Source: Candidatus Hodarchaeota archaeon (GTDB taxonomy: Archaea > Asgardarchaeota > Lokiarchaeia > Sigyniarchaeales > SOKP01). From it: 64,000 nucleotides of DNA. The notes beneath the pieces are model-generated. The model had not been told where the DNA came from. It saw only the letters and a list, made by a program, of their open reading frames with translations, and searched no databases. A program made the position numbers and the translations under genes. Below are positions 3,573-7,134 of this stretch, one piece after another. The stretch spans positions 81,755 through 145,754 of the forward strand of contig JBHLKM010000013.1 in assembly GCA_048886685.1 (NCBI GenBank), read 5' to 3'. Position 1 is the stretch's first letter, and the number at the start of each line of letters is the position of its first letter.

Positions 3573-4790
3573 TTATAAAGATCCATAAACATTTTTTAAA
3601 CCTTTATTTAAACCGAAGAGAAATTTTTCATTAGAATGCTCTATTAGAGAATTTGTATACTCAATGATCTTTTTAGCAATTTCAGGGTTTCGAAGCATTT
3701 GAACCTCGACCTTTTCAGCTCTATCCCATAATAGGTATGGCGTATCTTCATATGGAACCTCTTTTTTAACTTCTTTTATCCAACTATCTGGTAATTCATT
3801 AGTTAATTCTACATCAAGCATTTTTGCTAAAAAAATACTCCAAGCTCTAGGGACAACAGTTATTAAATATCCTCCTCCTCCGAATGCAACCCATTTATCT
3901 TGACAATATTCTTTTGCACAAGTTTTCATCGTCTGGGCTATATCTCTATAAACTGCTAATGAAAAGCCCATCTGTGTTAAGGGATCATCAAAATAGGTAT
4001 CTACTCCTAACTGCGTTATTAAAATATCTGGGCTGTATGCTTCTAATAATTTTGGTGCTGTTTTCCTGAATAATTTTATGAAAGATTTATTATTTGTCCC
4101 TGGCAGTAATGGGAAATTAATAGAATAACCATTCCCATCTCCTTCTCCAGTTTCATTAATAAATCCCGTTCCAGGAAAGAGAAACCTTCCATCTTGATGG
4201 TATGATATTGTTAAAACGTTAGGATCGTCATAAAAAAGCCATTGAACACCATCACCATGATGACAATCAATATCAACATAGGCAATTTTAATGTCTTTTT
4301 TCAAAGTTTTTAAATGCTGAATAGAAATGGCAATGTCATTAAAGATACAAAAACCGGAAGCTTTTTCTCTCATTGCATGGTGAAGACCGCCTGCTGGATT
4401 GAATGCCACTTTTACCTCTTCTTCATTCCACACTTTATCTGCGGCAATAATACTTCCTCCAGATATTAAAGCAGAAGCTTCATACATTCCTTTGAAAATA
4501 GGGTTATCTCCTGGTCCTAAACCATATATATAAGGAGATAATGATTTGTCGTTAGGATTTTCACTTAATTTTTTTACGACATCAATATATTTCGGAGAAT
4601 GAACTCTTTCTAACTCTTCTCTGGTGGCCATTCGAGGCTCCAGAATATCTAATCTTTCATTTTCTAACAATTTTAGCTTATCCATAAGACTATACGTCAG
4701 CTTTAGCCTTAAGGGTCTCAGGGGATGATCTTTTCCAAAATTATACTTTTGATATTCTTTGGTATAAACAAGCCCGACTTTATCCACCAT
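3573..4790 (-). CDS. Histone deacetylase family / AcuC-like Zn-dependent deacetylase
   Basis: HPLRPLR, GGLHHA, SGFCIFND, DIDCHHGDG, GGGGY. Confidence 0.92.
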   Translation of the reverse strand: MVDKVGLVYTKEYQKYNFGKDHPLRPLRLKLTYSLMDKLKLLENERLDILEPRMATREELERVHSPKYIDVVKKLSENPNDKSLSPYIYGLGPGDNPIFKGMYEASALISGGSIIAADKVWNEEEVKVAFNPAGGLHHAMREKASGFCIFNDIAISIQHLKTLKKDIKIAYVDIDCHHGDGVQWLFYDDPNVLTISYHQDGRFLFPGTGFINETGEGDGNGYSINFPLLPGTNNKSFIKLFRKTAPKLLEAYSPDILITQLGVDTYFDDPLTQMGFSLAVYRDIAQTMKTCAKEYCQDKWVAFGGGGYLITVVPRAWSIFLAKMLDVELTNELPDSWIKEVKKEVPYEDTPYLLWDRAEKVEVQMLRNPEIAKKIIEYTNSLIEHSNEKFLFGLNKGLKNVYGSL

Positions 4791-5979: not shown

Positions 5980-6143
5980 TTTATTGATTATCTCTGCTTA
6001 TTTAATCGTATATCTAAATAATTATATTAATAATTAATGGAGGTTAAAATAATAATTTTTTGAGAAATTTAATTCTAAATGAAAAATAATAATGATATCT
6101 TTACATCTTCTTATAAGAAGTTACATGAAAAATTAGAAAAAAA

Positions 6144-6327
6144 TGGTCCCTCCCCCCGGATTCTAGCGTGATCCGATATGGACCCTTATTTCGAGCCGGG
6201 GACCGTTCCCGGTATGGTCGATATGCACCATAACTCTCGGTTACGGCTGACGTAACTTCATTAGCTACAAGCTTTAGTACGCGACATTATCTACAGCCGA
6301 GCACTCTGACCACTGAGTTAGGGAGGG
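6144..6327 (-). tRNA. tRNA-Tyr(GTA) with three introns; exons 6327-6291, 6241-6236, 6205-6190, 6160-6144
   Basis: Joined exons give 76 nt: acceptor CCCTCCC/GGGAGGG (C1-G72), D stem ACTC/GAGT, anticodon stem CTCGG/CCGAG with loop CTGTAGA, T stem CCCGG/CCGGG, A73 and encoded CCA. Confidence 0.9.
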
Positions 6328-6615
6328 GATATGTTTTAAAATAAAATAATAATCTAATTAATTTATGTTTTATGTTTTTAGATTTAGACTAAGTAATAAC
6401 AAAAAGAAATCGATAGTTTTTTTGTACCCACAAAATTCTACCTTTTGATTAAGAAAACTTCAAATATGTTTACTTTATAAGAATATTAAACAAAAAATTT
6501 TCCAATAAAAAAAAGCAAATTACTTTTGTTGTGAAAAATTTTTATTGTCATAATTAATATTTTTATAAAAATTAACTATTATAATAATTACAATTTAAAT
6601 GTAAATTTTTTAAAG

Positions 6616-7134
6616 GTGATTATCATCAGGGAAGAAACTGATTATACTGAAGCAATCGAGGCGTATAAGAACGAACCTACTGTCATTCTAGAACCATGGG
6701 GTAGAAGTATCGATCACTTACGCTTAACAATCATCGGTAAAAAAGGAACTCCTTATGCAGATGGCAAATTTGTGTTTGAAATTAAATTTCCAGACAATTA
6801 TCCTTTCGCCCCTCCATATGCTTATGCTGTTACTCTAATGTGGCATCCTAATATCGATAGCTCTATTCCACCAGGAAAACTCAACATTTGTTTAGATTTG
6901 ATTAATCCAGATTTAGTTGGAAAAGTAGATGCATCAACTGGAGCAAGTGGTTGGACACCAAGTAAAACATTAACTAACATTATCGAAGCTCTCAAGGGAA
7001 TGATGCATGTTGAACCTCCATTCTTTAATCCCGGAGATCCATTGAATCACGAGGCAGGTGAGCAATATTTTAGGGCTCAGAAAAAGTTTGAGGCTAAAGC
7101 AACTGCTTGGACTAAGAAGTATGCCATGGACTAA
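6616..7134 (+). CDS. Ubiquitin-conjugating enzyme E2
   Basis: GTPY..G.F, FPDNYPFAPP, WHPNI, catalytic ICLDLI, WTP, DPLN..A. Confidence 0.95.
   Translation: MIIIREETDYTEAIEAYKNEPTVILEPWGRSIDHLRLTIIGKKGTPYADGKFVFEIKFPDNYPFAPPYAYAVTLMWHPNIDSSIPPGKLNICLDLINPDLVGKVDASTGASGWTPSKTLTNIIEALKGMMHVEPPFFNPGDPLNHEAGEQYFRAQKKFEAKATAWTKKYAMD

Follow-up and report, generated by a model that had tools for sequence, protein, structure and literature searches.

A tRNA-Tyr(GUA) gene interrupted by three introns, with a conserved probable kink-turn hairpin in its canonical-position intron, in a Lokiarchaeia genome

The stretch of DNA analysed here (the window, 64,000 nucleotides (nt), positions 81,755 to 145,754 of contig JBHLKM010000013.1 of Candidatus Hodarchaeota archaeon, an Asgard archaeon of the Lokiarchaeia, Promethearchaeota; assembly GCA_048886685.1) carries on its minus strand, from 6327 to 6144, a tRNA-Tyr(GUA) gene divided into four exons by three introns. 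This is very probably a functional gene whose product is spliced from a three-intron precursor. The initial annotation of the window, made from the letters alone, had proposed a tRNA-Tyr with three introns and a 6-nt micro-exon; its exons, introns and 76-nt cloverleaf were all reproduced. A three-intron tRNA gene as such is an already known kind of gene. The part that goes beyond published descriptions is the kink-turn module carried by the first intron.

The gene and its spliced product

Along the minus strand, four G+C-rich blocks alternate with three A+T-rich blocks between 6327 and 6144. The features of the locus are the following (window coordinates, all on the minus strand):

6144..6327, minus: tRNA-Tyr(GUA) gene, 184 nt, four exons and three introns (sequence, ARAGORN on the spliced product, orthologues)
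6291..6327, minus: exon 1, tRNA positions 1-37 (acceptor 5' strand, D arm, anticodon stem 5' strand, anticodon GUA)
6242..6290, minus: intron 1, 49 nt, canonical position 37/38
6236..6241, minus: exon 2, 6 nt ACCGAG, positions 38-43
6206..6235, minus: intron 2, 30 nt, position 43/44, relaxed HBh' motif
6190..6205, minus: exon 3, positions 44-59 (variable loop, T stem 5' strand, most of the T loop)
6161..6189, minus: intron 3, 29 nt, position 59/60 in the T loop
6144..6160, minus: exon 4, positions 60-76 (T stem 3' strand, acceptor 3' strand, A73, encoded CCA at 6146-6144)
6137..6143, minus: run of seven T directly after the CCA, a probable archaeal transcription stop (sequence; T-rich tails also lie 3' of the orthologues)
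6335..6356, minus: AT-rich stretch upstream of the gene, a possible TATA-type promoter (read from the sequence)

The exons measure 37, 6, 16 and 17 nt and give 76 nt when joined. ARAGORN calls the product tRNA-Tyr(gta), with all four stems fully paired and a 7-nt anticodon loop. It shows the expected features of an archaeal tRNA-Tyr: anticodon GUA, C1-G72, A73, a class I cloverleaf and an encoded CCA. C1 is required by archaeal TyrRS (PMC3695527). Exon 2 has only six nucleotides because the introns on either side sit at 37/38 and 43/44; it is small but does not differ in kind from other exons.

The product departs from the standard T loop at position 54 (window 6195), which is C in place of the usual U. 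U54 is near-universal in T loops, and the other tRNAs of this genome have it. In tRNA-Tyr the position is C here and in the sister family, and A in the second clade of the genus. C54 is borne out by alleles of the gene that lack intron 3. It is thus unusual yet conserved, hence no sign of decay.

Alleles with and without introns within the genus

A DNA search of 60 relatives, 35 of them genomes of the same genus (hereafter congeners, which are not independent samples), recovered the tRNA-Tyr locus in 30 of the 35. The same three junction rules parse 29 congeners, and every spliced product is called tRNA-Tyr(gta) by ARAGORN. About 20 species have the same exons as the window but differ in intron 3 and the flanks; exon 1 is 100% identical in loci L001-L011, L013-L018 and L020, L001 being the copy in the window. 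A second clade has another acceptor and T stem. Its differences are compensatory at 4:69, 5:68, 7:66 and 49:65, and each of these pairs bridges introns, with exon 4 providing one partner and exon 1 or exon 3 the other. Exon invariance, compensatory stem changes and diverging flanks together therefore indicate purifying selection on the spliced product.

The three introns differ in their distribution. Intron 1 occurs in every congener that has the locus; it measures 49 nt except in four genomes, where it has 55. Of the 29 parsed loci, 8 carry intron 2, which is homologous in both clades; the other 21 lack it precisely, with ACCGAG|CGGUC contiguous and exon 2 joined to exon 3. Intron 3 is found in 21 of these loci and is missing exactly from 8, leaving a plain 7-nt T loop. 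All three introns are found together in four genomes (L001, L002, L003 and L023). Because of the intron-less alleles, the 43/44 junction is fixed uniquely and the 59/60 junction is fixed up to a GAA repeat, in agreement with the positions first proposed.

Some loci show further variation. A 6-nt insert (AUUGAA or AUAGAA) lies in intron 1 just before exon 2 in L006, L015, L024 and L028. It resembles a duplicate of the GCCGAA unit and provides a new bulge-helix-bulge (BHB) strand with three of four pairs and a new bulge, with the splice site kept. In L030, about 30 extra nt lie near positions 7-9 of the tRNA-Tyr (5' acceptor/D region), which would be a further intron position. Within the window, introns 2 and 3 (6206-6235 and 6161-6189, minus) share the loop CAUAUCG and a similar layout, a likeness absent in most congeners and possibly due to chance or to local gene conversion. 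A blastn-short search found no paralogues of the introns elsewhere in the genome.

Relaxed BHB motifs at the three junctions

For scoring, the 5' bulge was taken as the last two nt of the 5' exon plus the first intron nt, the 3' bulge as the last two intron nt plus the first nt of the 3' exon, and the central helix as the four nt before the 5' bulge paired with intron nt n-5 to n-2. All three introns have the central 4-bp helix in relaxed form, with three of four pairs and the splice sites after the second bulge nucleotide:

Intron 1, 37/38: central helix CUGU/GCCG, 3/4 pairs; outer helix is the anticodon stem, 5/5 bp; inner helix weak and in competition with a conserved hairpin
Intron 2, 43/44: central helix ACCG/CGGG, 3/4 pairs; no outer helix (HBh' type); inner hairpin good and covarying among congeners
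Intron 3, 59/60: central helix CUCG/CUAG, 3/4 pairs; outer helix is the T stem extended to 6/6; inner helix partial, set off by a small loop

The helices are those named in the initial annotation, each with the single mismatch it described. The motifs are relaxed and not strict hBHBh'.

Splicing enzymes and proposed processing pathway

The initial annotation held that such a gene needs a tRNA-intron endonuclease (EndA) of relaxed specificity, and an enzyme predicted to be of this kind is encoded. Two EndA genes, open reading frames (ORFs) of 198 and 200 codons, lie at separate loci of the genome. The best match of the alpha paralogue to a solved structure is the Aeropyrum pernix alpha subunit (3P1Z chain B, E = 5e-34). 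It keeps the catalytic Tyr/His/Lys triad, and its K-P-R aligns with K44-P-R46 of the Crenarchaea-specific loop in that chain. Experiments have shown that this loop, K44 above all, enables an enzyme to cleave non-canonical and relaxed motifs (PMC3241643). In the second paralogue, Thr takes the place of the catalytic His, as expected of a structural subunit. By sequence alignment the EndA of this genome is thus of the (alpha-beta)2 type with the broad-specificity loop, its assembly and substrate range being predicted. It is like the A. pernix (alpha-beta)2 enzyme (PDB 3P1Z; PMC3241643) in its triad, in the loop residues K44/R46 and in having a second, non-catalytic paralogue; it differs in that its second subunit is closer to the Methanocaldococcus jannaschii alpha4 enzyme than to crenarchaeal beta subunits. 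The RtcB ligase is also encoded.

We infer that the gene would be transcribed as a precursor of about 184 nt from which the three introns would be removed by the archaeal protein splicing pathway. The (alpha-beta)2 endonuclease would cut two nt into each bulge of the relaxed BHB motifs at 37/38, 43/44 and 59/60, and RtcB would join the four exons into the 76-nt tRNA. Each intron would be presented by a local fold of its own, intron 1 on the anticodon stem and intron 3 on the T stem, while intron 2, which lacks an outer helix, would have to recruit the 3' side of the anticodon stem (nt 38-41). The motifs of introns 1 and 2 would then form in alternative conformers and be cut in separate events.

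Order of removal of introns 1 and 2

Nucleotides 39-41 can pair with 29-31, making the anticodon stem that is the outer helix of intron 1, or with the GGG at the 3' end of intron 2. Because they serve in both, the two motifs cannot coexist. The initial annotation had concluded from the double use of exon 2 that splicing is ordered. The two exclusive pairings stood up to analysis without establishing a fixed order, given the modelled energy gaps. Folding with the acceptor, D and T stems fixed gave the following values, which are nearest-neighbour energies at 37 C and hence rough, mismatched motifs being poorly treated:

Full precursor, best fold, with the intron-2 helix already in it: -62.3 kcal/mol
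Full precursor, intron-1 BHB (anticodon stem + H1): -56.6 kcal/mol, about 5.7 above the best
Intron 1 removed, opening of the anticodon stem to present intron 2: about +2.1 kcal/mol
Intron 2 removed, intron-1 BHB over its rival: about +1.6 kcal/mol

The gaps between rival conformers thus appear small (about 2-6 kcal/mol), and in these models removal of intron 2 first is a weak preference and not a programme.

An obligate, programmed order, required by the two pairings of exon 2, is conceivable but doubtful. In a sharper form, the CAGCCG tail of intron 1 would pair with nt 29-34 and free exon 2, intron 2 would be cut first, and the anticodon stem would then form and present intron 1. The 29-34:CAGCCG helix and the intron-2 helix are indeed mutually compatible, and the best precursor fold already holds the latter. 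However, with intron 1 gone, forming the intron-2 helix takes only about 2 kcal/mol, which makes the reverse order accessible. Moreover, the 21 congeners without intron 2 conserve CAGCCG just as well; timing the removal of intron 2 is therefore not what it evolved for.

A probable kink-turn hairpin in intron 1

Unlike intron 3, intron 1 is nearly as conserved as the exons, with a mean column identity of 94% over 23 congeners. The segments UCGCG, AUGA and ACGUCAGC are invariant in the congener alignment. RNAalifold finds a 5-bp helix and an apical 3-bp hairpin, with compensatory changes in each. The loop between the two helices is asymmetric. Following the hairpin stem, its 3' strand has three bulged nt and then G-A; its 5' strand has an A immediately before the stem, with A or G preceding that A. 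This arrangement is a kink-turn signature, located in the window as follows:

6250..6282, minus: kink-turn hairpin (RNAalifold, covariance model and covariation)
6282-6278 with 6254-6250, minus: NC stem
6273-6263, minus: apical C-stem hairpin
6259-6258, minus: G1b and A2b
6274, minus: A1n

The copy in the window has the C stem, the 3-nt bulge AAU, the G1b.A1n pair and the NC stem, with A.A and not A.G at 2b.2n. An A.A at 2b.2n occurs in rare natural kink-turns such as Kt-23 of Thelohania.

The module extends well beyond the genus. A pattern search of 149 genomes of the class found tRNA-Tyr anticodon arms with introns in most, and some match in 127 of the 149. A covariance model built from the genus alignment matches end to end all 29 loci tested, from seven families; the E-values of this home-built model are rough. 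In these 29 class-wide sequences, G1b and A2b are present throughout (29/29) and L3 is U in 28. An automated scan of the opposite strand gave the canonical GA in 15 and AA in 7; the seven left unparsed, that of the window among them, were read by eye. The two helices are 99% and 92% paired over the class-wide alignment and show double-sided changes in 6 of 8 pairs. All these measures exceed those of 500 out of 500 shuffles and of every slid control (94.8% paired against at most 45%). This alignment was fitted to the model and so favours the structure somewhat; the same pattern is visible by eye in the raw sequences. The genome has two L7Ae-family genes, and the intron 1 kink-turn would probably bind L7Ae. 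No description of a kink-turn in a tRNA-Tyr intron was found in the literature searched.

The tail of intron 1 and its possible role

Directly 3' of the kink-turn hairpin lies a short segment with two possible partners:

6244..6249, minus: CAGCCG, 3' end of intron 1; its GCCG forms the intron side of the BHB helix, and all six nt are perfectly complementary to tRNA nt 29-34

In the class-wide sequences UCAG(C) follows the hairpin directly in all 29. In several genera the BHB intron strand is supplied by another segment, 10-20 nt further downstream, and UCAG(C) is therefore not explained by the BHB. The 29-34:CAGCCG pairing is the fold preferred by both RNAalifold and RNAfold. It leaves U35 and A36 without partners at the base of the helix bearing the kink-turn.

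These observations raise the tentative, and on present evidence rather unlikely, proposal that intron 1 is a class-wide L7Ae-binding module acting in cis. The UCAGC tail would pair with nt 31-34 (29-34 here), exposing U35 and A36 5-7 bp below the kink-turn in an H/ACA-like manner. Cbf5 (or Pus7) would then make pseudouridine 35 before splicing. The same refolding would free exon 2, so that intron 2 would leave before intron 1. Both Cbf5 and a full-length TruD/Pus7 homologue are encoded in the genome; gene content therefore favours neither route, a guide is not clearly required, and the argument for a guide from an absence of Pus7 was dropped.

Neither known class of guide RNA fits intron 1. 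As an H/ACA guide it would have a one-sided pocket, no lower stem of its own and no conserved ACA: CAGCCG alone, on the 3' side, can pair with the target, whose own strand runs on directly into the 5' side. Should the intron act like a guide, it would be an atypical one. As a box C/D small RNA (sRNA) it would have a single kink-turn, no C/D and C'/D' pairs and no guides of 10-12 nt; the spacers are helical and of 5-7 nt, and Rfam gives no C/D match on the minus strand.

The comparison with known systems follows the same lines. The H/ACA sRNAs for pseudouridine 35 of pre-tRNA-Tyr in Sulfolobales and A. pernix (PMC2651775) have the same target U35 and likewise place a kink-turn 5-7 bp above the held target, whereas the module here lies in cis and lacks the two-sided pocket, the lower stem of its own and the ACA box. 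The box C/D sRNA in the tRNA-Trp intron of Euryarchaeota, which acts on its own precursor, is also a canonical-position intron with an L7Ae-type kink-turn; as far as it is described where cited (Singh et al. 2004, cited in PMC4090602), it differs from intron 1, which has one kink-turn, no C/D and C'/D' pairs and no 10-12 nt guide.

Alternative readings and points of weakness

Several observations weigh against a functional tRNA-Tyr gene spliced from a three-intron precursor. No allele lacks intron 1, so that its junction is set by the cloverleaf and the BHB register only. Thermodynamically, none of the three BHB folds is optimal or gains support, since single-sequence folds do not outdo shuffles (z = -0.2 to -0.5). 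For the anticodon arm with intron 1, the rival 29-34:CAGCCG register gives the minimum-energy fold, and the conserved hairpin, once formed, leaves the 5' splice site of intron 1 in an AU-rich loop with no clean 3-nt bulge. Position 54 is C and not the usual U. That the gene is transcribed, where exactly its transcript is cut and what the mature tRNA looks like are all deduced from sequence. Lastly, the assembly is a draft metagenome-assembled genome (4.42 Mb, 47 contigs, 30.9% G+C, rated 100% complete) with 8% estimated contamination, and a second tRNA-Tyr is possible on unassembled DNA.

In another reading the cut sites differ and the product is the same or nearly the same, for instance with intron 3 cut at 57/58 or intron 1 read as a bulge-helix-loop. 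We consider this unlikely. The GAA repeat at both ends of intron 3 permits four registers with the same mature sequence. Among the alternative registers that leave the mature sequence unchanged, 38/39, 58/59 and 56/57 score 0-1 of 4 central pairs, but 57/58 has 3/4 as does the preferred register. Likewise, formation of the conserved hairpin puts the 5' site of intron 1 in an 8-10 nt loop. On the other hand, the 57/58 register has no outer helix: the T stem is kept as outer helix (6/6 pairs) in the 59/60 register only. In addition, the 59/60 intron of the second clade has a perfect 4-bp central helix and an inner helix in that register.

A second tRNA-Tyr gene was looked for genome-wide. None was found in the 47-contig draft by ARAGORN -i, by the Rfam tRNA model, by BLAST queries with the mature tRNA-Tyr of each clade or by scanning for anticodon arms with GUA and an intron length of 0-200 nt. 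Two candidates on contig C33 were rejected: a look-alike is a tRNA-Asn(GUU) with a T-loop intron of its own, and an ARAGORN 'Tyr(ata)' call is a tRNA-Glu(UUC) with a D-arm intron. As far as found, the 6327-6144 locus is thus apparently the only tRNA-Tyr(GUA) gene of the genome. That it is decaying or unused, with a working tRNA-Tyr elsewhere, on unassembled DNA or as split halves, is very improbable: the draft state of the assembly and the mere 30-35 tRNAs found in it by standard tools leave some room for this, but the selection evident on the exons and stems, the presence of one same locus in the congeners, one-contig genomes included, and the failure of any second candidate speak against it.

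Visibility of the gene and of other tRNA genes

The initial annotation had warned that standard annotation may miss the gene, and both ARAGORN and the Rfam tRNA model proved blind to the unspliced locus. ARAGORN makes no call with or without -i. The Rfam library gives no match at gathering thresholds, nor at E<=10 when the 371-nt region is searched alone, and the tRNA-Tyr locus is not among the 30 hits of the Rfam tRNA model over the whole genome.

Non-canonical introns also occur in other tRNA genes of the genome, in the T loop of tRNA-Asn(GUU) and tRNA-Lys(CUU) and in the D arm of tRNA-Glu(UUC). These intron-bearing loci are the following:

C33:9864-9985, plus: intron-bearing tRNA locus
C33:10058-10160, minus: intron-bearing tRNA locus
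C16:73590-73700, plus: intron-bearing tRNA locus

Because standard tools find only 30-35 tRNAs in a genome rated complete, a dozen or more further tRNAs are probably hidden by introns in the same way. A tRNA-Sec(UCA) gene at C1:221073-221165 (minus) is called by both ARAGORN and the Rfam tRNA model, and selenocysteine is probably used.

In the window, the tRNA gene is adjoined by a gene for a ubiquitin-conjugating (E2) enzyme (172-aa ORF, 6616-7134, plus; Pfam UQ_con, E = 2e-26); this eukaryote-like protein is typical of the Asgard group and agrees with the placement of the genome there. At 3573-4790 (minus) there is a gene of the histone-deacetylase family.

Relation to known multi-intron tRNA genes and significance

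Three introns per tRNA gene is the reported maximum in Thermoproteales (PMC4033280). The initial annotation considered multi-intron tRNAs best known from that order; they are known there, but not best known there only, since up to five introns per tRNA gene are reported in Asgard archaea (bioRxiv 10.64898/2026.10.13.758758). According to the same preprint, about a quarter to a third of Asgard intervening sequences are missed by tRNAscan-SE, and most genomes have two EndA paralogues. Its main text mentions neither Lokiarchae- nor Tyr.

The tRNA-Tyr gene resembles the multi-intron genes of Thermoproteales, in so far as these are described in the sources available (Sugahara et al. 2007, 2008; PMC4033280, PMC4090602), in its relaxed hBH/HBh' motifs and (alpha-beta)2 EndA. 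The hosts differ, a mesophile-like Asgard archaeon of 31% GC here and hyperthermophilic crenarchaea there. Intron transposition was inferred in Thermoproteales, whereas BLAST reveals no near-identical intron family in this genome. With the genes of the Asgard preprint it shares the superphylum, several introns per gene, BHB-compatible sites, patchy gain and loss and two EndA paralogues. The focus there is on Jordiarchaeia and Atabeyarchaeia, while here junctions are fixed by presence and absence in 29 congeners of one Lokiarchaeia genus.

The locus therefore offers a clean, well-controlled example of tRNA gene fragmentation in the closest archaeal relatives of eukaryotes, in which natural alleles with and without introns within one genus place two non-canonical junctions to the nucleotide. 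It is also a case of an essential tRNA wholly missed by default gene finders. With three relaxed motifs, one of them without an outer helix, and a 6-nt exon, it provides an exact substrate for defining the range of an Asgard EndA.

To our knowledge, eukaryotic tRNA-Tyr introns are short and lack a kink-turn. They are, however, like intron 1 in lying at the canonical position of tRNA-Tyr and in being retained across a whole major lineage, a likeness of description from which homology is not claimed, and they have been tied to modification of the precursor (PMC12168002). The conserved kink-turn thus poses a testable question, namely whether the tRNA-Tyr intron is kept in Asgard archaea for the same reason. 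If the proposed role of intron 1 is true, Asgard archaea would resemble eukaryotes in keeping a tRNA-Tyr intron for the sake of modifying its precursor.

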